Below are positions 3,816 to 63,819 of a stretch of DNA of 64,000 nucleotides, piece after piece. The notes below the pieces were generated by a model. That model had not been told where the DNA came from, ran no database searches, and was given only the letters and a program-made list of their open reading frames with translations. Numbering within the stretch: the stretch's first letter is position 1; each line of letters opens with the position of its first letter. The translations under genes and the position numbers were made by a program. Source of the stretch: Bacteroidales bacterium. GTDB taxonomy: Bacteria > Bacteroidota > Bacteroidia > Bacteroidales > P3. The stretch spans positions 6,949 through 70,948 of the forward strand of contig JAFUVR010000037.1 of the NCBI GenBank assembly GCA_017477485.1, given 5' to 3'.

Positions 3816-3889
3816 GGGGTATTAGCTCACTTGGCTAGAGCGTTTGACTGGCAGTCAAAAGGTAATCGGTTCGATTCCGATATACTCCA
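3816..3889 (+). tRNA. tRNA-Ala (anticodon GGC)
   Basis: Cloverleaf by hand: acceptor GGGGTAT/ATACTCC with the G3:U70 Ala identity pair, anticodon stem TTTGA/TCAAA, loop CTGGCAG, T-loop GGTTCGATTCC. No encoded CCA. Confidence 0.9.
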
Positions 3890-3895
3890 CAAGAG

Positions 3896-3918
3896 AAGAG
3901 GCTAAGGCCTCTTTTTTT
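3896..3918 (+). terminator. Intrinsic terminator after tRNA-Ala(GGC)
   Basis: GAGGC-taag-GCCTC hairpin followed by T7. Confidence 0.6.
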
Positions 3919-3978
3919 GAATAGAGACAAGGTGAATGAAAAGGGCCAAGCAGACGACGTGCCGGCCACACAAAAAAA

Positions 3979-4051
3979 GGGGTATTAGCTCATCTGGTAG
4001 AGCGTTTGGTTCGCAATCAAAAGGTAATCGGTTCGAGTCCGATATACTCCA
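3979..4051 (+). tRNA. tRNA-Ala (anticodon CGC)
   Basis: Same acceptor stem with G3:U70, anticodon loop TTCGCAA, T-loop GGTTCGAGTCC. Confidence 0.9.
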
Positions 4052-27496: not shown

Positions 27497-27580
27497 GCCC
27501 AGGTGGCGGAATAGGTAGACGCGTCGGTCTCAAAAACCGATGGGGTAACACCCGTGCCGGTTCGACCCCGGCCCCGGGTA
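27497..27580 (+). tRNA. tRNA-Leu (anticodon CAA), class II with long variable arm
   Basis: Anticodon stem TCGGT/ACCGA, loop CTCAAAA, variable arm TGGGGTAACACCCGT, T-arm GCCGG-TTCGACC-CCGGC. The acceptor GCCCAGG/CCCGGGT carries G1.U72 and an A5.C68 mismatch. Confidence 0.8.
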
Positions 27581-27593
27581 CACAAGACGGATA

Positions 27594-27668
27594 GGGAGTT
27601 TAGCTCAGCTGGTTCAGAGCGCTTGCCTTACAAGCAAGAGGTCATTGGTTCGAGCCCAATAACTCCCA
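27594..27668 (+). tRNA. tRNA-Val (anticodon TAC)
   Basis: Acceptor GGGAGTT/AACTCCC, anticodon stem CTTGC/GCAAG, loop CTTACAA, T-loop GGTTCGAGCCC. Confidence 0.9.
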
Positions 27669-31681: not shown

Positions 31682-32452
31682 CTAATCGGTCTTGGCCGTC
31701 CACCGGACGACGCGGATGCTGACTTCATAAAGAAGATAGAGTGGCATCGAGACGAGTATGAGTGTCATCAGGTCGGGAGGGGTGATGACAGCTGCCACAA
31801 ACATGATGACGATAAAGGCGTGGCGACGGTAGCGTGATAGTAGCGCGGACGTAATCAATCCCATCTTTGCCAGAAAGAAAGCAATGATGGGCAGCTGGAA
31901 CACGAGGCCCATCACCAGCGTCAGCGATGTGAACGTGCGAATGTACGAATCAATTGTAATCGTACTATGTATTTGGTCGGAAACACTGTAGTTGCCCAAA
32001 AAGCGAAACGAGATGGGAAACAAAACAAAATAGGTCATCAGCACGCCCACGATGAAGAGTGCGTAGATAACAACGGCCACCGCCACGGAGTGGCGCCGCT
32101 CGTTATCGTACAAGGCTGGAGACACGAAGCGAAACAATTCAAAAAGGATGTAGGGCGATGCACCGAGCAGCCCAAGATGAAAAGCCGTGGTGATGTGACG
32201 CATAAACTGGCTCGACAGGTCGGTAGCGATGAGCTGTATGTGGTACTCGGCGAAATGGAAATCCACGCCCAGACCTTGCAGCAAGTGCTCTATCCAACGG
32301 TAGGTAACGAAATCCCACTGTGAGGGTGCCAACAGTAGACGCCACGTGGCATCCTTGAAGCAAAACACCACGACGGTTATAGCAAGCGTGACTGCGAGAA
32401 TGCGCAACAGCATTTGGCGAAGCACCTCCAAGTGTTCGCCAAATGTCATCAT
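31682..32452 (-). CDS. tatC: Twin-arginine translocase subunit TatC
   Basis: MMTFGEHLEVLRQMLLRILAVTLAI.. with six TM segments. Start set at ATG 32452, 16 nt after the tatA stop; the longer ORF overlaps tatA. Confidence 0.85.
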   Translation of the reverse strand: MMTFGEHLEVLRQMLLRILAVTLAITVVVFCFKDATWRLLLAPSQWDFVTYRWIEHLLQGLGVDFHFAEYHIQLIATDLSSQFMRHITTAFHLGLLGASPYILFELFRFVSPALYDNERRHSVAVAVVIYALFIVGVLMTYFVLFPISFRFLGNYSVSDQIHSTITIDSYIRTFTSLTLVMGLVFQLPIIAFFLAKMGLITSALLSRYRRHAFIVIMFVAAVITPPDLMTLILVSMPLYLLYEVSIRVVRWTAKTD

Positions 32453-32468
32453 CTGCTCCGTGGGCTGG

Positions 32469-32702
32469 CTATTGCCGCTCCCCGTCCTCGCCCGATGGCG
32501 GCTGTTGCGCAGGTGGTACTTCCTTTTCATCTTGCTGGTCGCCTGAATCTTCGGCCATGGGGTCGCTCATGCCTTTCTTGAAACTCTGCACGCCCTGTCC
32601 CAAACCTTTCATCATCTCGGGCAGTTTCTTGCCACCGAACAGTAGCAGGGCTATGCCGCTGATGAGCAGCAACTCGGTAGTACCGATAAATAGTAGTTTC
32701 AT
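32469..32702 (-). CDS. tatA: Twin-arginine translocase subunit TatA/E
   Basis: [45 protein letters not shown]: TM helix, hinge FGG and amphipathic helix. Confidence 0.85.
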
Positions 32703-32713
32703 AGCGGTTTATG

Positions 32714-33037
32714 TTATTCAGAAAGGAATATCTCGCAAGTCTCGAAGTTTATCTCCCAGTGGCCGTTCTCGGTACCTTGCCATTGATACTGGGCAGCCAT
32801 GCGGTCCCACCAGTTTTGAAATTTAGTGCCTGTCTCGCCCATATCCTTCACCAGTTTCTGATAGAGGACGTCGTTATCGGGAGTGAGAATTTTGGCCAAC
32901 TCGCTGAGGCCGTTGCGGCGTTCGAAGAGACTCTGTATCTCGTCGCGTTCCTCGGCAGTTACATATCCGATTTTTGTCTTCATGGTTCGTGTTTTTTCAA
33001 TGATATTTTGTTTGACATCTGTTATGAAATCAACCAT
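32714..33037 (-). CDS. Small accessory protein of the CXXX-repeat peptide modification system
   Basis: 107-aa ORF (internal start MKTKIGYVTAEERDEIQ at 32983 is equally possible). Predicted helical. It sits 11 nt upstream of tatA and 51 nt downstream of the SPASM gene. The family name is from memory of NCBI/TIGRFAM naming. Confidence 0.6.
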   Translation of the reverse strand: MVDFITDVKQNIIEKTRTMKTKIGYVTAEERDEIQSLFERRNGLSELAKILTPDNDVLYQKLVKDMGETGTKFQNWWDRMAAQYQWQGTENGHWEINFETCEIFLSE

Positions 33038-33088
33038 GCTTGATTGACAACCTAACCCTGGTCAATTGTTTTCTTGGTCAGGCGAAAG

Positions 33089-34036
33089 TTACCATTCTTT
33101 ACGCACGTCGAAGGGGTCGCTGTAGTCTATTTCCTTTATCTCCACTTCGGACATGAAGGTTGCCTTCTCCCTTACGTTCGCCAGCAACCGTCGCGTGGTT
33201 TCGCGCTCGGTGTGTGCCATGACACATTGCTCATGGCTTGGTGTATTCACCTCGTAAGTCATCTTGCGGTTCAGCCACACGCAGCGACGGCAATGCCACA
33301 CATCGCAGTGGCGGCACAGCGGGGCATGGTCCAGCCGCAACAACTGAGGGTTGCGGATGTCAAGTCCCTCCGCCACGGATCCCACGTTATCATCGGCATC
33401 AGTGTAGTAGAACGCCGGACAGAGGTAGAACCGCCCATTAGGTGCCAATGTGATGTTCTCTACGCCAGCGTTGCAGTGGTTAGGTTTATCCAGCATCATG
33501 CGGTCGGTTAGCAGGTTCAACTGCGGTGCGCACCCTGTAAGATACTCCGCCTTCACGACCTCCGCCAGCGTGTCCAGCACCTCTCTGTACTTCGGCAGCT
33601 CGGCATCCGTAATAGTCTCCACGTCGGTAATCACCACGTTGAGCCGTGCCACCTGCTGCGTCAACTGAGCCACAGCATCGACCGACTTGAAGAGCCCCGC
33701 CTTCGTTATCCGCAGCACGTACGGCACATTTCGGAGAACGGGCGACTCGCCCGAGAGTCCGTCCATGACCACCACATCGGGTTCCTGCACAGGTCTGTCG
33801 CCCGTGCCCCACGGCACAATGTCGTGGTGGTCAATGGTGTCTATTACGTCCAGATACTCCTGCGGCAGTGCGTAGTTGGGATAGACCATCTGCACCATCA
33901 AGTTCTCCATCATGGCATAGCGAATGCTCATGCGCAAGTCGTCGAGACCTATCAGTCGGCGTTCCTTGTGGGGATTGTCGCAATGGCAGTAGCTCACCGA
34001 TGTGTCGTCCAACAGTATTACAAGATATTGCATCAT
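33089..34036 (-). CDS. SPASM-domain protein lacking the canonical radical SAM CxxxCxxC motif (CXXX-repeat peptide maturase-like)
   Basis: Start chosen at MMQYLVILLDDTSVSYCHC (34036, 4 nt after the upstream stop); alternative ATG at 34081. The N-terminus has only CHC. The C-terminal Cys cluster is HCNAG..LCPAF..LCRHCDVWHCRRCVW..EQC. Confidence 0.7.
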   Translation of the reverse strand: MMQYLVILLDDTSVSYCHCDNPHKERRLIGLDDLRMSIRYAMMENLMVQMVYPNYALPQEYLDVIDTIDHHDIVPWGTGDRPVQEPDVVVMDGLSGESPVLRNVPYVLRITKAGLFKSVDAVAQLTQQVARLNVVITDVETITDAELPKYREVLDTLAEVVKAEYLTGCAPQLNLLTDRMMLDKPNHCNAGVENITLAPNGRFYLCPAFYYTDADDNVGSVAEGLDIRNPQLLRLDHAPLCRHCDVWHCRRCVWLNRKMTYEVNTPSHEQCVMAHTERETTRRLLANVREKATFMSEVEIKEIDYSDPFDVRKEW

Positions 34037-34040
34037 GACT

Positions 34041-35288
34041 TTAGCAGATTTCGGGGTTAGACTTACGGTGATTTTTCTCATACTCCTCACGGTGCTCCTC
34101 CAGTTCCAACTTACGGTAGAGCTTGTTCCAGTAGTAGTTGTTGGCCCGCACACGGGCTTTGTGCATCAGGCAAATGGCTGTCGAACGTTCATAGATAGTG
34201 TTGGTCCGTGCGGCATCGTAGTTCTCGCCCTGACACCATGCACAGCCACTCGCCACCTCGCAATCGAGGCACTTTTGTGGGCTCTGCGTCACACGATCCA
34301 GCGTCAGGAACGGCCGCAACAGGTTCTGGTTGATACCATCCTTGATGTTGCCGATAACGAGTGCTCTCTTCTCTCGCAGCGAATACTGCGCAAAGCGTGT
34401 GCAGGGGTACAATTTGCCCGCGGCGTCCACGCTCAGCATCCGTCCCGCGCCGCACCAGTTCTGGTTATCGCGCTCTGGATCCAGCGGTTTGCCTATCTGC
34501 TCGCTGAAGAACGAGCAGGCATAGTCCTCATAATAGCCACCGTCAATGATGGCATCGGCCAGTGTCATCAGCTGTTCCTCGAAGCGACTATCATCGCCCT
34601 CCTGCCACACATCCTCGAACACCACGTTGATGTTCACCTGATGGATGCCCAGCGAATAGAGGTGTAGCACACTTTCCGTGATATACGGAATGTCGGTACT
34701 GCTGATGGTTACCTTCGTCCCCGCATCAGGAAACTGCTTTAGCCACAGCGGGATGTTACGCACCACGTCGTTGTACGACCCTTTGTCCGACGACAGCGTG
34801 ATGCCGTTGGGGTCAGTGGATGGCTGCTTGTACACACGGTTCATATCGTGCTTCCGCTCCGTGCCGTCGATGGTGATACCTATCGACAGGTGGTCGCGGT
34901 TCTTCTCGATAAAACGCTGCACCTCGGGCGTGTGATAGTTGATGCCGTTGGTCGAGAACGAGAAACGGTACGAGTTGAACCAGTGATGGTTCAGTTCGAA
35001 CATACGCAACTTCAGGTAGTCGCATATGCGGTCAATCAGTGCAATCTCCAGAAATGGCTCACCGCCGATGAAGTCCCAAATCACACTTTCTTCCGGAAAT
35101 TCGCTCTCATGCGATAAAACATAGTCAATAAACTCCTTGGCCGTTTCCCACGACATCCGCTCTTTCATGTTCTTCCCCACCAAGTAGCAATACTTACAGG
35201 CCAGCTGACAGTCCTTCGTGACGATAAATGTAATATTCTTCGCCATGCCAGACTGCCATAGCAATGTTTCTTTTTTTATAGTATTCAT
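34041..35288 (-). CDS. Radical SAM/SPASM peptide maturase (anaerobic sulfatase-maturase-like), CXXX-repeat target type
   Basis: Radical SAM cluster motif ITFIVTKDCQLACKYCY. SPASM cysteines are WCGAG..YPCTRF..CLDCEVASGCAWCQG..AIC. Confidence 0.85.
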   Translation of the reverse strand: MNTIKKETLLWQSGMAKNITFIVTKDCQLACKYCYLVGKNMKERMSWETAKEFIDYVLSHESEFPEESVIWDFIGGEPFLEIALIDRICDYLKLRMFELNHHWFNSYRFSFSTNGINYHTPEVQRFIEKNRDHLSIGITIDGTERKHDMNRVYKQPSTDPNGITLSSDKGSYNDVVRNIPLWLKQFPDAGTKVTISSTDIPYITESVLHLYSLGIHQVNINVVFEDVWQEGDDSRFEEQLMTLADAIIDGGYYEDYACSFFSEQIGKPLDPERDNQNWCGAGRMLSVDAAGKLYPCTRFAQYSLREKRALVIGNIKDGINQNLLRPFLTLDRVTQSPQKCLDCEVASGCAWCQGENYDAARTNTIYERSTAICLMHKARVRANNYYWNKLYRKLELEEHREEYEKNHRKSNPEIC

Positions 35289-35351
35289 TTCTTTATAGGC
35301 AAAACACCACCAAAATATAAAATGTGTCGATTTTTACCATATATCCTTTGA

Positions 35352-36074
35352 CTAATTAATTTTTATTACCTGACTTGCTGGTGGGAAAACAAAAGACATC
35401 CCATAACAACTCCCTGTACAAAAACCAGCACAATTCCCGATACAGGAACTTGTACACAACGTTTTGCAACTATATTCACATGATTCCTTACAACTATGTT
35501 TACATGATTCCTTACAGGAATAATAGCATGACTCCTTACAGGTCTCAGAACAGGAACCACTACATCCTGATTTACAATCATGAGAACATGACTGCGCGCA
35601 ATTTGTAGTACATGTCCCACTGCACGTACTTTTACACCCACCAGAACAAGACGATTTACATCCAGCCTTACAGCTATCTTTGCACCCACCAGAGCAATCG
35701 CGACAACTTGAAGAAGTACTATGACTATTAGAGCTAGAACTATTGGAAGACGACCCCGCACAACTATAGCCACATGAGCCACTACATTGGTAATAGCACG
35801 AGCCTTGACATGTCCCTGTGCATCCTTGACACAGATTTGAACAGGAACCGCTACAACTACTTTTACATCCACCATAACATAACTGATAACATGTTTCAGT
35901 ACATGCAGTAGCACATGAATACGGGCATCCTGTAGGATGCAATTTCCCATCTGCTGCCGATGACATATCTACAACTGCTACCATTCCCAAAAGAGGAAGT
36001 AACCCATTGGCTGCCACTTTAAAGAAGGTCCTTCTGCTTTGTAATTTGTCTTCTTTTTTCATATCGTTTTTCAT
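35352..36074 (-). CDS. Tat-signal CXXX-repeat polycysteine protein (putative radical SAM substrate)
   Basis: Start at ATG 36074 (MKNDMKKEDKLQ) or 36062. Twin-arginine motif SRRTFFK plus an h-region and SSA-A. It has 41 Cys in two blocks (15 + 26), with 37 CX3C and 2 CX2C spacings, separated by the Ser/Asn linker AGSSSNSSSSNSHSTSSS. Confidence 0.8.
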   Translation of the reverse strand: MKNDMKKEDKLQSRRTFFKVAANGLLPLLGMVAVVDMSSAADGKLHPTGCPYSCATACTETCYQLCYGGCKSSCSGSCSNLCQGCTGTCQGSCYYQCSGSCGYSCAGSSSNSSSSNSHSTSSSCRDCSGGCKDSCKAGCKSSCSGGCKSTCSGTCTTNCAQSCSHDCKSGCSGSCSETCKESCYYSCKESCKHSCKESCEYSCKTLCTSSCIGNCAGFCTGSCYGMSFVFPPASQVIKIN

Positions 36075-36087
36075 AACTACAGGGTAT

Positions 36088-36334
36088 AAAAAAACCGCGG
36101 GCTTCTGTTGAGGCTCGTGGTTCTGGACTACCATCTATCAAACAAGAAAGCTCGCGATTGCTCACGAGCGTTCCGCTTCTTGTTGATAGATAAACAAATT
36201 TGTCCAGAATTTGAGCCTATCAAGAAAGCAAAAACGCTTTTTATCTATTTCCCTTCGATTCTAAATCTTCTCTATATTATTCGTATTCAGTTATTTTTTA
36301 TATACTACATTCACGGATTTGCACCACAAATATA
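36088..36334 (-). promoter_or_regulatory. Promoter (-7 box TATATTTG 36327-36334, -33 TTTG 36354-36357) plus ~245-nt structured leader, copy 1
   Basis: Nested helices at 36121-28/36202-09, 36135-48/36177-89 and 36150-69. Hairpin plus U7 at 36088-36120. The core is repeated at 63600-63730 (see findings). Confidence 0.6.
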
Positions 36335-58896: not shown

Positions 58897-61425
58897 TTAG
58901 TTTTCTACGCGTATTGGACGAACGCATCCAAGATAACCACTAGTATATTCGCTACCACCACTATATCCGTTATCATATTCCCATCTACAATAATTACGAC
59001 TTCCTGATACCCATATGATAAAAAGATAACTACTACTATCTGAAGCAATACTTGAAGAATGATAAACGATTTTGTTGCCGGTTCTAAAACCACCTATTAT
59101 TTCCTTATACTGCCACATAGTTATCAGTTCATCAATGGTAGGCAACCTCCAATCATCATAGCTATAAGCTGCAAGCTGCTCACAATATAGCTGTGCACCT
59201 CGCCAAGACACATAAAAACCGGGATCGGGTGCTACTCGATAAGTATGGCCTTCAAAAACAAATGTCGGCAACATCAAATAATCCACGTCAACTTTGATTT
59301 GTTCGCCATAAGACGTGCCATTTGCATTGGTGGCGTATGCACGGACATAAAAGGTTCTTCCAACATTGATATCGACTACCGAAGTGAAATAGCCAGAGCC
59401 TGTGCCATCATTTGTATGGGCATAGGTCGCAGTGAGGTCTGGATTGGGATATACGCCATAAACGATGCCTCGCGCCGTTATGGGGAATCCGCCATTGTCG
59501 GTTATATGTCCCCCTGATACCACGTTGTCTCCACTTAAAGATGCAGCGGTAGTTGTGACCGTTGGCAATCCATCATGTGTTGTAAATGATATCTGTTCGC
59601 CATAGGTAGTTTCTATACTGGTAGTGGCATAGGCTCTGACATAATAGGTGGTGCCCATCTCAAGATTTGTCAATGAAGAAGTAAATGTTCCATTGCCGCC
59701 ACCTTCGATGCTATGGCTACCCATGATGGTCGGAAATTGCGTTGTGCTCCAACAAAGGCCTTTAGCCGTAACCACAATTCCACCGTTGCTTGTAACACTT
59801 CCCGTATATGTAGCCGTTGTAGCCGTGATATTGTTCACATTTCCAATGGAAATAGTAGGTCTGCCATTATTTGTTGTAAATGTAACCTCATTACCATAGG
59901 ATGTGAGGTGATTATTCGTGGCATACGCCCTCACATGATATGTTGTATTTACTGAAAGGTTATTCATATTGCAAACAAACGTGCCAGTGCCTGCTCCACT
60001 GGCAACATGAGCATCGTGTATGTCAGGATTGCCCGTAGTATTCCAGCAAATGCCTCGTTCGGTGACATCAAGTCCAGCATTGTCTGTTATATTGCCACCG
60101 CATTTTGCTGATGTCGCAGTTATATTTGAGGCAGCTGTAGTAGTCATCGAAACGATGCCCGACCTCGTGGTAAATGTTAGTTCGTTGCCATAGGCAGTAC
60201 CAACACTATTTGTGGCATATGCCCGCACATGATAAGTAGTGCCCGGCGTTAAATTAGTCATATTGCTACCGAACGTGCCATCACCTGATCCATCAGTGGA
60301 ATGAGCATTTTGTATATCTGGATTGCCTGTAGTATTCCAACAGACGCCACGTTCCGTAACACGAAAACCTCCATTATCAGTGATAGTACCTCCTCCTTTA
60401 GCAGAATTGCCAGTAATATCGCTGATTTCTTTCGTAGATAACGATGGCAGACCATTGGTGGTGACGAAACTCTTCTGCGGTCCATAGGAAGTGCCGCACG
60501 AGTTGGTTGCGTATGGACGATAATAGTATGTTATGCCTGGTTCAAGGTTCTGCAGGGTATGTCTGAATGCTCCCGTATCGGCACCATCGGTAGTGACATT
60601 GTCGCTGATGGTGGGTTCCTGCGTCTTAGCATAAACAAAACCGCGTTCTGTGATGGCATCGCCGCCATCATCGGACACCGTGCCGCCAATGGAGGCGGAA
60701 GTGGCCGTAATATTGGTGGCATCATAGGTGCTCAGTGTGGCCTCACCACTTTGTGTCGTGAACATTTTTTGCGCACCAAACGTAGTGGCAATATTGTTGG
60801 TAGCATAGGCACGCACATAGTAGGTTGTGGACTTGGTCAAGTTTGTCAGATTAATGGAATACTCGCCGAGACCCGTTCCAGCAGTGATAACCGAATCATC
60901 GAGTGTGGGAGTCTGATGCGTGGCATAGCAGATACCACGGACTAAGATTTCGTGTCCGCCATCGGCTGTAACATCGCCCGATACCCTTGCCGACAAAGCC
61001 CGTATAGCATTTACATCATTTGTCGTCACCCATGGCAGCAAATCGGCGTTGGTCTTGTCGTAGAGGATAATGTTTTTGTAGTCATAGACTTTGGAGCCAA
61101 GACCCATAAGAGGCTCTTGTCTGGACGGCAGGTCAAGAGCGGTACCATCAAGCCAGAGGTAGCAGTCGTCGCCAAGTTCGTCAAAGTTGACATCGGTAAG
61201 TTTGAACCTTCCGTTGCGGTCAGTAACACTCACGGCATAGACATGCGAGCCATCGGTAACCTGCACCGACACACCCTCCACGGGCTGCATGCTGCTTTTC
61301 TCCACCACAGTGCCTATATACTGTGTGGTGGTGCTTATACCTTCTTTTTCCAAATCTTTGACGCAGGCCCACACCATGCATAACACGGCGGCAGCAATGA
61401 TATACAATAAACTTCTTTTTTTCAT
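58897..61425 (-). CDS. Large surface lipoprotein: CarboxypepD_reg-like domain, six tandem ~98-aa Ig/FN3-like repeats, C-terminal DUF1566 (Lcl C-terminal)-like domain
   Basis: Lipobox VWAC. Contains GVSVQVTDGSHVYAVSVTDRNGRFKL. The repeats end in TTY(Y/H)VRAYATN..G..YG....FTT. The C-terminus WRLPTIDELITMW resembles DUF1566. Confidence 0.75.
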   Translation of the reverse strand: MKKRSLLYIIAAAVLCMVWACVKDLEKEGISTTTQYIGTVVEKSSMQPVEGVSVQVTDGSHVYAVSVTDRNGRFKLTDVNFDELGDDCYLWLDGTALDLPSRQEPLMGLGSKVYDYKNIILYDKTNADLLPWVTTNDVNAIRALSARVSGDVTADGGHEILVRGICYATHQTPTLDDSVITAGTGLGEYSINLTNLTKSTTYYVRAYATNNIATTFGAQKMFTTQSGEATLSTYDATNITATSASIGGTVSDDGGDAITERGFVYAKTQEPTISDNVTTDGADTGAFRHTLQNLEPGITYYYRPYATNSCGTSYGPQKSFVTTNGLPSLSTKEISDITGNSAKGGGTITDNGGFRVTERGVCWNTTGNPDIQNAHSTDGSGDGTFGSNMTNLTPGTTYHVRAYATNSVGTAYGNELTFTTRSGIVSMTTTAASNITATSAKCGGNITDNAGLDVTERGICWNTTGNPDIHDAHVASGAGTGTFVCNMNNLSVNTTYHVRAYATNNHLTSYGNEVTFTTNNGRPTISIGNVNNITATTATYTGSVTSNGGIVVTAKGLCWSTTQFPTIMGSHSIEGGGNGTFTSSLTNLEMGTTYYVRAYATTSIETTYGEQISFTTHDGLPTVTTTAASLSGDNVVSGGHITDNGGFPITARGIVYGVYPNPDLTATYAHTNDGTGSGYFTSVVDINVGRTFYVRAYATNANGTSYGEQIKVDVDYLMLPTFVFEGHTYRVAPDPGFYVSWRGAQLYCEQLAAYSYDDWRLPTIDELITMWQYKEIIGGFRTGNKIVYHSSSIASDSSSYLFIIWVSGSRNYCRWEYDNGYSGGSEYTSGYLGCVRPIRVEN
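59284..61029 (-). repeat. Six tandem coding repeats (~294 nt / 92-98 aa each) inside the 842-aa lipoprotein
   Basis: Hand-delimited units starting VTTNDVNA, QSGEATLS, TNGLPSLS, RSGIVSMT, NNGRPTIS and HDGLPTVT. The conserved core is ITERG.CW.T..NP....H...G.G.G.F...L.NL...TTY.VRAYATN. Confidence 0.8.
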
Positions 61426-62290: not shown

Positions 62291-62731
62291 CTATCTGCAA
62301 TCTCGGAAATCGTCAAACAATGGAGACATATTGCCGTAGCGTGCCACCTGCCAAAGAATGTAAATCTTGACGTTTCTCGACGTTGTCGGTTTCTCGACAT
62401 ATTCGCACACCTTGTTGAGTGGCAGCACCATCTGGGTCTCAGCGACATTGATATTTTCGGTTATACCCTTTTCGAGCACGTGTATGTCGTTCTTGGTGTC
62501 AACCGTAACGCCCAGTTTCCACGAACTCTCAAGAATAGCGGTAGCAAAAGCCTTGGCGTAAGCCTTCTCGTAGGTGTTGGCTTCGGCATGGGTAACACGA
62601 TAATAATAGGTCTCGTTGCTCGGCTCGGGCAACTGCGTAACCCATCGTGGCAGAGCAGAATATGTCTGCGAGACAACGCTCGCAGACATTCCTACAAACA
62701 TCAGAATAAAGAAAATGTATCGCATAATCAA
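62291..62731 (-). CDS. LPP20-like secreted protein
   Basis: Signal peptide, then LPRWVTQLPEPSNETYYYRVTHAEANTYEKAYAKAFATAI. 4-nt overlap with the upstream gene. Confidence 0.6.
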   Translation of the reverse strand: MIMRYIFFILMFVGMSASVVSQTYSALPRWVTQLPEPSNETYYYRVTHAEANTYEKAYAKAFATAILESSWKLGVTVDTKNDIHVLEKGITENINVAETQMVLPLNKVCEYVEKPTTSRNVKIYILWQVARYGNMSPLFDDFRDCR

Positions 62732-63426
62732 TAGCCAGCCTCTTTCTTTGAATCCTTCATGGCCTGCAGACGCTCGTCCATGAATTTCTGGAATTGGGCG
62801 GCGTTGAAGTCAATTCTATCGCTCTCTGCAGCAGCGACAGCCAGTTTTTGCTGCAACTCCACAACAGGAATTTCGACCACATAGTAGGCATCCCATGTGC
62901 CACGATTATTCTGAAAACATTTGTCACAGGTTTTTCGGGCACGGTTCAGCATACCTTCGACCACACTCATCATGCCTCCTTCCATTTTACTCTGCATATC
63001 ATTTCCAGCACTATTGCCCATAACGTTTCGCACATAGTCGGTGGAAAGACCTTGAACAAACTCGGCCATTTTATCTTTACAAACTTGTTTGGCTGCTAAT
63101 TCTGCAGCACGACGAGCTTGCATCTCATTGGCATTGGAGCCGATGCCCAATTCACGGATGTATGCGTCATCATCGTAAGATAAATCAACACAAGGCAACT
63201 CAACATACGTGCCGCGAGCATTCCGCTGTGTTCTTATTGCGTTAAGGGAGTCCATGATTAATTGCCGTTTCATAGCCTCTACTTCCGCCTGAAATTTCTG
63301 TTCCGCATCCCAAGCGGCTTTCTTGGCGGCTCTCTTTTCTTTGCGCGTCTGCGCCATCATGGGGTTGCTTACGGCCACCGACATGGCGATAATGAACAAC
63401 GAGAGAATAAACTTGATGTGTTTCAT
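62728..63426 (-). CDS. Secreted coiled-coil plus LPP20-like domain protein
   Basis: Signal peptide MKHIKFILSLFIIAMSVAVSNPMMAQ, a Lys-rich helix, and then IRELGIGSNANEMQARRAAELAAKQVCKDKMAEFV. Confidence 0.6.
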   Translation of the reverse strand: MKHIKFILSLFIIAMSVAVSNPMMAQTRKEKRAAKKAAWDAEQKFQAEVEAMKRQLIMDSLNAIRTQRNARGTYVELPCVDLSYDDDAYIRELGIGSNANEMQARRAAELAAKQVCKDKMAEFVQGLSTDYVRNVMGNSAGNDMQSKMEGGMMSVVEGMLNRARKTCDKCFQNNRGTWDAYYVVEIPVVELQQKLAVAAAESDRIDFNAAQFQKFMDERLQAMKDSKKEAGY

Positions 63427-63505: not shown

Positions 63506-63547
63506 AAAAAAAATCCCTGACCTTGCGTTTTCGCTTGATCAGGGATT
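63506..63547 (-). terminator. Strong intrinsic terminator inside the leader of the 63426 operon
   Basis: AATCCCTGA (63512-20) / TCAGGGATT (63539-47), 18-nt loop. An A8 run on the + strand gives U8 after the hairpin on the minus transcript. It lies 80 nt upstream of ATG 63426. Confidence 0.7.
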
Positions 63548-63819
63548 CCGTTAAGACAACAAAAAAATCCGCAGACTTATATTTCTTTATGTGTGCTGGG
63601 GTTCTGGACTACCTACTATCACATACAAGAAAGCCCACGGATGTCCGTGAGCGTTTCCCAGCCTTCTCTGTGATAGTGATGAAATTGTCCAGATTTCAGC
63701 ACACAAAAAAGCGAAAAACGCATTTTTTATGATAATAAATCCTCTAAACTCTTTTTATTAAGTTCCTTATAACTAAAGTATTAATTATTAATCGGGGTTA
63801 TAACACGTCCACAAAAATA
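63548..63819 (-). promoter_or_regulatory. Promoter (-7 box TATTTTTG 63812-63819) plus structured leader, copy 2
   Basis: The core 63600-63730 is collinear with 36119-36244. Helices at 63602-09/63687-93, 63616-23/63669-76 and 63636-40/63645-49. Confidence 0.6.

Follow-up and report, generated by a model that had tools for sequence, protein, structure and literature searches.

Two operons with unrelated products share a leader in a 64,000-nucleotide stretch of DNA from a Bacteroidales bacterium of ruminant-gut metagenome origin (GenBank assembly GCA_017477485.1, contig JAFUVR010000037.1, positions 6,949 to 70,948; hereafter, the window). The leader in question lies on the minus strand at 63562-63740 (copy B) and again at 36088-36255 (copy A), and both copies belong to an RNA family with no entry in Rfam 15 and no counterpart in the literature searched. 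Members of this family carry two competing folds, both under selection, and the family is probably a cis-acting, two-state transcription attenuator that operates without a leader peptide.

The collinearity of the two regions, first noticed in the initial annotation of the window, is genuine. On the minus strand, the copies align over around 350 columns with a mean column identity of 73%; all of the shared blocks that had been listed are present in both, and the differences between copies are compensatory, as had been claimed, for both the middle helix (CUAUCACA/UGUGAUAG in copy B versus CUAUCAA/UUGAUAG in copy A) and the apical helix (CACGG/CCGUG versus CGUGAG/(A)UCGCG). The upstream -7 box is likewise shared (TATTTTTG and TATATTTG) and is separated from UCUGGAC by 126 nt in both copies, and the description of a promoter-plus-leader module on the minus strand is supported. 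Each copy folds into a long imperfect hairpin, with stabilities relative to shuffled sequences of z -8.6 and -5.4. A covariance model (R1), built from an alignment of 115 sequences (A2), finds exactly two sites in the window: copy B scores 133.8 bits (E 1.5e-24) and copy A 116.5 bits (E 4e-21), with the opposite strands of B and A reaching 31 and 21 bits, respectively.

The search for further copies proposed in the initial annotation reveals a large family. A scan of one genome per species with the pattern TCTGGACAA-N(55-85)-GGTAGTCCAGAACC yielded at least 118 loci, nearly all in gut Bacteroidales: carriers include Prevotellaceae, Paraprevotella, Rikenellaceae, Muribaculaceae, Paludibacteraceae, Onthomorpha, Aphodosoma, Enterocola, and many unnamed metagenome-assembled genomes (MAGs). 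Single MAGs often hold several loci, with at least three copies seen in single MAGs. A metagenome scan anchored solely on two other conserved blocks (AAGCGTTTTTGCTT-N(60-90)-ACGCTCACG) added 100 gut loci (the L120-L219 set), bringing the total to at least 218, and application of model R1 to the fetched loci returned four extra, more divergent copies. The small regulon once proposed to link the two window operons is not supported as stated, for hundreds of unrelated genes, spread over many families of Bacteroidales, lie behind the same module. At gathering thresholds, Rfam 15 matches nothing in the window except four tRNA genes, arranged as two pairs at 3816-4051(+) and 27497-27668(+), and gives no match to six further family members; the collection compared includes riboswitches, T-boxes, leaders, FopS, Bacteroides-1/-2, and Bacteroidales-1. 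At E<=10, the two loci attract chance matches only, well below threshold, and at E<=5, a metagenome member (L120) attracts only rimP on the element, at 21.9 bits against a threshold of 47. Literature searches returned no relevant report on the conserved 14-/15-mers or on Bacteroidales leader or attenuator RNAs.

The conserved part of the element is about 170 nt in length and comprises, from 5' to 3', the segments 1-b-c-d-2-3-h-i-j-4-U7. It is preceded by a TAnnTTTG -7 box and an A/U-rich, poorly conserved leader of around 80-85 nt; TAnnTTTG is the -7 consensus of sigma-ABfr (PMC7366714). The box lies no more than 130 nt from region 1 in 77 of 87 elements chosen independently of this feature, with a mode of 97-98 nt and a distance of 95-96 nt in the window copies. 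Region 1 (consensus AAAGCGUUUUUGCUU...) is followed by variable b, by GAAA-c-AAUUUC with a variable c, and by variable d. Region 2 (..AAGC..GAAACGCUCACG) then leads through a variable loop to region 3 (CGUGGGCUUUUCUUAUU) and variable h, after which come UAGGUA-i-(G/A)ACCUC with a variable i, variable j, an A-rich spacer (GAUAAGAAAAAAG), region 4 (GUCCCACG), and a run of six to eight U residues. The combination of CRCG and at least five U residues is found in all 97 members that were not selected for that feature. Regions 1 to 4 are conserved in sequence and have two alternative partners each; b:j, c:i, and d:h have one partner each and show compensatory drift.

The first of the two folds is a rod of about 45 bp, in which b:j, c:i, and 2:3 are backed by both RNAalifold and the covariance-model alignment. 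The 25 modelled rod pairs are 96.5% paired (29%-41% with slid partners) and contain 435 compensated cells, against 127 ± 8 in shuffles. Mean duplex energies point the same way: b:j averages -10.5 kcal/mol versus -3.2 kcal/mol for permuted partners, and d:h averages -12.4 versus -4.7 kcal/mol, with z around -33 in both cases. In 95 of 96 members not selected for c:i, this helix reaches at least 6 bp, and it does so with at least 12 different sequences (UCUCGAC, CUUCGAC, CCUGAAC, UCCGCAA, CCUCGAAA, CCUGGAA, and others), TCTGGACAA occurring in only 13 of the 97 members of the independent set. The apparent invariance of c:i in the first set arose because the search pattern imposed those blocks; GGTAGTCCAGAACC and TCTGGACAA are thus not family-wide invariants, and c:i is the fastest-covarying helix. 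The 14-mer GGTAGTCCAGAACC shared by the two window copies is only one of at least 12 alternative sequences of this helix. A conserved sensor made up of GGUAGUCCAGAACC and UCUGGACAA, whether as an ops-like site bound by a paralogue of NusG, as a T-box-like UGGN, or as the target of a common small RNA, was considered and rejected, as both vary and covary in the independent scan. U-G pairs are conserved on one strand, which identifies the RNA strand as the minus strand of the window.

The second fold consists of two hairpins, the latter of which ends at the U-tract. Helices 1:2, x:y, and 3:4 are 91.6% paired in the covariance-model alignment (slid controls, 29%-49%) and hold 164 compensated cells versus 58 ± 10 in shuffles, none of 500 shuffles being as high. 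Regions 1 and 2 are complementary over 12-20 bp, with the best partner located there in 92 of 107 sequences and a mean energy of -15.15 kcal/mol for cognate versus -11.7 kcal/mol for non-cognate pairs (permutation sd 0.24); compensated variants include GGCAUU/AGUGCC, AGCGAU/AUCGCU, and GCAUAAG/CUUAUGC. Similarly, the best 12-nt partner of region 4 falls within region 3, and not in adjacent sequence, in 93 of 94 sequences (cognate -15.4 versus non-cognate -11.1 kcal/mol), and the two regions change jointly, GCGUGAACCGUAUC occurring with GAUACGGUUUACGC and ACGUGAACUGCUU with AAGCAGUUCAC. GAAAU and AUUUC around c also covary: when AAUUYC carries C, the upstream partner is G in 9 of 10 sequences and the downstream partner is G in 5 of 11, compared with 3 of 70 otherwise. 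Folded apart, each half of the element forms one long hairpin. In hairpin 1 (HP1), 1:2 forms the closing helix and GAAAU/AUUUC the cap, around a loop that holds c; in hairpin 2 (HP2), 3:4 and GGU/ACC take these places, around a loop that holds i. The HP2 helix abuts the U-run in 85 of 103 elements. An earlier proposal that GCG-UUUUU-CGC forms a stand-alone hairpin was rejected, since a place in the 5' strand of the long 1:2 helix accounts better for this sequence.

Because 1:2, 3:4, and the rod all covary, regions 2 and 3 each possess two mutually exclusive partners. In alignment A4, for example, columns 190-197 pair with columns 115-122 in the rod, and columns 190-196 pair with columns 313-319 in the terminator, with covariation in both sets. 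Both folds are under selection; the single hairpin described in the initial annotation is present, but the family also carries a second structure that excludes it. This double covariation bears directly on the proposal that the element is a constitutive structural module, in which the rod would serve processing or stability (as an RNase III substrate, a 5' protective hairpin, or an insulator) and set the half-life or level of the mRNA with no switching at all. A near-perfect duplex of about 45 bp that is strongly favoured thermodynamically would suit such a role, as would a very diverse gene set with no common signal and GACAUA/UAUGUC flanks able to close the element in read-through transcripts. 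However, the outer GACAUA/UAUGUC pairing shows no covariation, and neither the universal U-tract after region 4 (97/97) nor the covariation of 1:2, 3:4, and x:y in competition with the rod is explained, which makes a purely structural role distinctly unlikely.

In the attenuator that we favour, transcription would begin at the module's own sigma-ABfr promoter, around 80-85 nt before the conserved part. In the read-through state, b, c, d, and 2 would pair with 3, h, i, and j to form one rod, the antiterminator, leaving region 4 and the U-tract single-stranded and allowing polymerase to continue into the gene. In the terminating state, 1:2 pairing would form HP1 and sequester the 5' strand of the rod, thereby acting as an anti-antiterminator; region 3, now freed, would pair with region 4 to produce HP2 at the U-tract, and termination would follow. 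HP1 could form before region 3 is transcribed, and the outcome would be kinetic, a race between the invasion of HP1 by h-i-j and region 3 and the synthesis of region 4 and the U-tract. The frequency of termination might then be set by a factor that stabilises 1:2 and 3:4 or by the speed of polymerase. We infer that the choice between the two folds would decide termination.

Several observations weigh against this attenuator. The mean minimum free energy of the rod is -60.4 kcal/mol, versus -45.1 kcal/mol for the two halves together; with the rod preferred by around 15 kcal/mol, the terminator fold may rarely form, and termination would need either kinetic trapping or a stabilising factor. With about 45 nt in its loop, the terminator stem departs from the usual form of an intrinsic terminator, and the hairpin middles b:d (z -8) and h:j (z -2) are weakly supported. 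Neither an effector nor a conserved aptamer-like pocket was found in the family, and the downstream genes have no obvious common physiological theme. The conserved short open reading frame (ORF) over region 1 that would mark a leader-peptide attenuator is absent, an ATG being present there solely in copy B among the copies and members inspected. None of the RNA-seq runs holds the window genome. Homologous copies are present in gut metatranscriptome assemblies, including short contigs, and mouse-gut metatranscriptome contigs run continuously through a Muribaculaceae copy (L043), which fits transcription and read-through; these contigs may, however, include DNA, give no local depth, and are uninformative with respect to 3' ends. 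By analogy with PyrR, the most likely candidate for a stabilising factor would be an RNA-binding protein that acts on the anti-antiterminator.

A metabolite or ion riboswitch is another possible reading, with a ligand bound at the internal loops of the rod or at the 1:2 helix shifting the balance between folds; GAAA/ACCUC, the A-A mismatch, and the tandem G-U pairs in AUUU/AGGU would be the candidate sites. Some validated riboswitches are simple rods with internal loops, the terminator/antiterminator logic is that of an expression platform, and conserved unpaired or wobble nucleotides lie beside a variable helix. Yet the sequence inside 1:2, the would-be P1, is largely variable, with only GAAA and AAUUUC conserved, which argues against a small-molecule aptamer; the downstream array of leucine-rich repeat (LRR) surface proteins, restriction enzymes, helicases, and unknown proteins fits no single metabolite; and there is no Rfam riboswitch match. 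We give this explanation little credence. Riboswitch expression platforms resemble the family in their mutually exclusive terminator and antiterminator, and tandem-hairpin riboswitches such as guanidine-II (mini-ykkC) in their two related hairpins with loops able to pair, but these differ from it in that the loops of the family vary and covary, no conserved ligand pocket is visible, and the genes are non-metabolic. A T-box was also considered and rejected: there is no Rfam T-box match, UGGA in c is part of a variable helix, and the downstream genes are unrelated.

Among the closest parallels to the favoured attenuator are the trp, his, and leu attenuators and those governed by PyrR or TRAP. 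These share with the family the alternatives 1:2, 2:3, and 3:4, with 3:4 followed by a U-tract; the anti-antiterminator/antiterminator/terminator logic; and the position between a promoter and the first gene. The family places a stem and U-tract between promoter and ORF and possesses an alternative structure that sequesters a terminator strand. Unlike the classical systems, the family has no conserved leader peptide, its outer strands also pair to give a 45-bp rod as the antiterminator, its terminator stem encloses about 45 nt, and it stands at 218 or more loci ahead of unrelated genes.

Countertranscript-driven attenuation in pT181 and pIP501, and the kissing loops of ColE1, offer a further comparison, for here too a leader chooses between termination and read-through via pairing that starts at complementary hairpin loops. 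In those systems the partner is a separate antisense transcript, whereas in this family both strands are on the same RNA, which is chromosomal and has no link to replication genes. The complementary loops do, however, allow for the idea that c and i act as addresses: both loops would be displayed in the two-hairpin state, and leaders or terminated RNAs of the same code could kiss in trans. We consider this a long shot. If true, it would imply an RNA-only regulon network in which surface, restriction-modification, and accessory loci of the same code are coupled or mutually excluded, and the two window copies would be co-regulated, as both carry UCUGGAC/GUCCAGA. From code frequencies, the sharing of one c:i code by the two window copies is estimated to arise by chance in about 9% of random pairs.

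The relationship of the element to the genes behind it bears on whether it acts in cis. In 88% of 203 elements, no more than 250 nt lie between the U-tract and the start of a same-strand ORF of 80 codons or more; the median distance is 75 nt (interquartile range 53-94 nt, and sometimes only 0-20 nt). A divergent ORF is found on the other side in 18%. The control with random positions gives 51%, a value inflated by in-frame internal ATGs, and so the association rests mainly on the tight distances and on the 18% divergent control. Pfam families were counted over 95 first downstream ORFs, the most frequent being LRR_5 of the BspA type (13) and LRR_8 (10), followed by ResIII and DEAD (7 each), SNF2 helicase (6), N6_Mtase, Mrr restriction endonuclease, and PLD (3 each), and TPR/Sel1 (2). 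Among ORFs without a listed family, many translations have signal-peptide-like N-termini. The family is therefore attached to accessory surface, secreted, and defence genes and not to one pathway.

This coupling also bears on the proposal that the module is a small RNA (sRNA) gene, its transcript of about 250 nt ending at the U-tract and acting in trans by base pairing or protein titration, with the downstream genes as mere neighbours or incidental users of read-through. The module does have its own promoter and its own terminator; copy B has two tandem terminators, and the 80 nt behind them hold no good -7 box; RNA libraries contain homologous copies on short contigs; and multicopy sRNAs with sigma-ABfr promoters exist in Bacteroides, such as FopS (PMC11697453). 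Against this, the coupling to the next ORF is tight and of fixed orientation, so that no separate promoter is left to the genes; c and i, the putative seed loops, vary from copy to copy and can pair with one another; and selection for an antiterminator rod would be purposeless in a plain sRNA; we thus regard an sRNA gene as unlikely. FopS and GibS resemble the family as Bacteroidales-specific multicopy RNAs with sigma-ABfr promoters and Rho-independent terminators. FopS, however, is 65-70 nt long, consists of a conserved 5' seed (R1') that stays single-stranded and a lone terminator hairpin behind it, and acts in trans on susC mRNAs, and the deposition of its family in Rfam is stated by its authors (PMC11697453). 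The element described here has about 170 nt of conserved structure, is almost fully self-complementary, lacks such a seed, and is fixed before ORFs; membership of the FopS family was rejected on size, structure, and the lack of an Rfam match.

The initial annotation had allowed that the similarity might belong to a scattered repeat resembling miniature inverted-repeat transposable elements (MITEs). A mobile palindromic repeat of the MITE, ERIC, or Correia type, carrying an outward promoter and spreading regardless of function, would account for a multicopy, intergenic, imperfect palindrome beside accessory genes and for flanks that are very similar between copies within a lineage. In fact, orientation and distance to the next ORF are fixed, copies on the same contig differ by compensated substitutions and are not near-identical, and the G-U pairs are strand-asymmetric, with the model scoring 5-6 times lower on the reverse strand. 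The flanks that were read contain no extra terminal inverted repeats or target duplications, although no systematic search was made, and the 2.9 million viral contigs of IMG/VR hold a single match. A mobile repeat is thus very improbable, and a phage origin was rejected on the same single match.

Apart from a handful of riboswitches, Bacteroidota have few known RNA regulators that act in cis; in B. thetaiotaomicron, only thiamine pyrophosphate (TPP) riboswitches are named, via homology to Rfam families (PMC7366714). The present family places a single leader design ahead of very many accessory genes in Prevotellaceae, Rikenellaceae, Muribaculaceae, Paludibacteraceae, and uncultured gut lineages. 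Should the element prove to be a switch, dominant gut bacteria would possess a large regulon of surface and defence functions controlled after initiation, and an effector, whether a protein or a kinetic signal, would be implied. The covariation for two competing folds is unusually clear, making the family a good model for co-transcriptional RNA folding, and for annotation the element shows where hundreds of poorly annotated MAG operons have their promoters and 5' ends.

Within copy B, the sigma-ABfr-type -7 box TATTTTTG occupies 63812-63819(-) and forms the module promoter, 96 nt 5' of region 1. Region 1 (AAAAAAUGCGUUUUUCGCUUUUUU, 63705-63728(-)) provides the 5' strand of HP1, the putative anti-antiterminator strand, and its duplex with region 2 has an energy of -18.8 kcal/mol. 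The 5' strand of helix S1 (GUGUGCUG, 63697-63704(-)) has its rod partner at 63591-63598, S1 showing 35-61 compensated sequences per pair (z = -33). It is followed by AAA-UCUGGAC-AAUUUC (63681-63696(-)), which in the rod forms UCUGGAC:GUCCAGA and AUUU:AGGU; in the two-hairpin fold, G63697 and AAAU instead pair with AUUUC (GAAAU/AUUUC) to close the 7-nt loop CUGGACA. The 5' strand of S2 (63669-63680(-)), which includes CUAUCACA, pairs with 63616-63623 (d:h, z = -33), and region 2 (GAGAAGGCUGGGAAACGCUCACGG, 63645-63668(-)) pairs with either region 1 or region 3. Region 3 (CCGUGGGCUUUCUUG, 63626-63640(-)) supplies the 3' side of the apical hairpin when the rod forms and the 5' strand of the terminator stem when it pairs with region 4. 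The 3' strand of S2 (UAUGUGAUAG, 63616-63625(-)) is supported by the fold and by d:h covariation. UAGGUA-GUCCAGA-ACCC (63599-63615(-)) forms the 3' strand of the central rod helix, and in the two-hairpin fold its GGU/ACC closes the loop AGUCCAGA; the 3' strand of S1 (CAGCACAC, 63591-63598(-)) again has fold and covariation behind it. The family's intrinsic terminator ends the module at 63561-63578(-), comprising region 4 (AAGUCUGCGG, 63569-63578), A63568, and U7 (63561-63567), with the 3' strand pairing with region 3 (-14.8 kcal/mol).

The "textbook terminator" that the initial annotation reported in copy B does exist, as a hairpin of AAUCCCUGAUC (63537-63547) and GGUCAGGGAUU (63512-63522) followed by U8 (63506-63547(-) overall), but it is not the terminator of the family, which lies just upstream and which the initial annotation had not recognised in either copy: the extra hairpin corresponds to no position of model R1, bearing in mind that the rows of A2 end at the first U run, i.e., before any second terminator of other members. 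Copy B thus has two tandem terminators, and in the 80 nt between these and ATG 63426, where no second promoter box had been seen, there is a poor -7-like TACATTTT lacking the final G. Transcription of the copy B operon would therefore require read-through of both terminators or a putative weak promoter. In copy B only, AUGCG replaces the family's AAGCG at the start of region 1 and opens a 33-codon ORF (63621-63722(-), with UGA at 63621-63623), which is probably fortuitous, as neither copy A nor the relatives inspected share it. The 232-aa product of the first gene (62728-63426(-)) has no Pfam match and begins with a signal-peptide-like segment; the operon that this gene heads encodes, in all, three small proteins of unknown kind and an fn3/Lcl_C surface protein of 842 aa (58897-61425).

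Copy A has the same layout. Its -7 box (TATATTTG, 36327-36334(-)) was read from the sequence and is spaced as in copy B, and region 1 (AAAAAGCGUUUUUGCUUUCUUG, 36221-36242(-)) forms a duplex of -17.7 kcal/mol with region 2. The 5' strand of S1, GGCUC, and the following AAAU-UCUGGAC-AAAUUUG occupy 36195-36220(-), as placed by the fold and the model alignment, while fold and duplex energies place the 5' strand of S2 with region 2 (CAAGAAGCGGAACGCUCGUGA) at 36162-36194(-) and region 3 (UCGCGAGCUUUCUUGU) at 36142-36157(-). The fold then assigns the 3' strand of S2, GGUAGUCCAGAACC (36119-36132), and the 3' strand of S1, GAGCC, to 36112-36141(-). Region 4 (AAGCCCGCGG) and U7, the family terminator, lie at 36088-36104(-), region 4 pairing with region 3 at -13.2 kcal/mol. 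Only 13 nt separate the U-tract from the ATG, leaving no space for a further promoter. The proposal that the downstream genes depend on read-through is supported, since the leader ends in terminators. The first gene (35352-36074(-)) encodes a Cys-rich protein with a twin-arginine signal and no Pfam match, in an operon (31682-36074(-)) that also encodes a radical-SAM/4Fe-4S enzyme (34041-35288), an unknown protein, and TatC (31682-32530); the whole has the look of a cluster that matures and exports a secreted, Cys-rich protein or peptide.

In both copies, the apical hairpin GCUCACGG...CCGUGGGC and the U-rich UUUCUUGU that follows were flagged as terminator-like (63633-63652(-) and 36150-36169(-)) and could represent an earlier weak termination or pause site. 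A sigma-70 promoter scan was set aside as not applicable to Bacteroidales. A subset of the family (L009, L010, L011, L019, L023, L024, L028, L029, L033, L035, L041, L042, L044, L076, L084, L108, and L111) carries GCCUAUG and a mini-ORF of 2-7 codons (AUG AUA UAA, AUG CCG UAA, AUG GAA UAG) around 25-30 nt 3' of the -7 box; the feature is not universal and is in neither window copy. GACAUA is located about 10 nt 5' of region 1 in 52 of 76 elements, and AUGU or AUGC(C) directly 3' of the U-tract in 27 of 76 (e.g., L008 and L015); flanks of the GACAUA type are weak in the window (63729-63740 and 36243-36255). An outermost closing helix, GACAUA...AAAA : UUUUU-AUGUC, was rejected, its cognate energy of -4.2 kcal/mol being close to that of permuted partners (-4.0 ± 0.19 kcal/mol), with no covariation.

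One Onthomorpha-type copy (L065, JAZORK010000062.1) lies on a 3.2-kb contig in a Firmicutes bin, a MAG labelled Acutalibacteraceae, and most likely reflects a binning error and not presence outside Bacteroidales. Second copies less than 8 kb from the first occur at L025:1321-1493(-), L058:5461-5655(+), L097:5932-6118(+), and L023:5436-5669(+), the last with a 50-nt insertion in the apical loop, and in all four the c:i sequence differs from that of the first copy. Within a sub-lineage of the L120-L219 set, copies placed ahead of different genes show moderate conservation in what follows the terminator (for example, AUGCCUUGAAGUCAAAGAAAGAAA...AAUCGCCAUU), and helices b:j, c:i, and d:h of these same copies are entirely different. 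Such a pattern suggests that the scaffold may have spread in a cassette-like manner or been homogenised, with the single-partner helices left free to change or diversifying.

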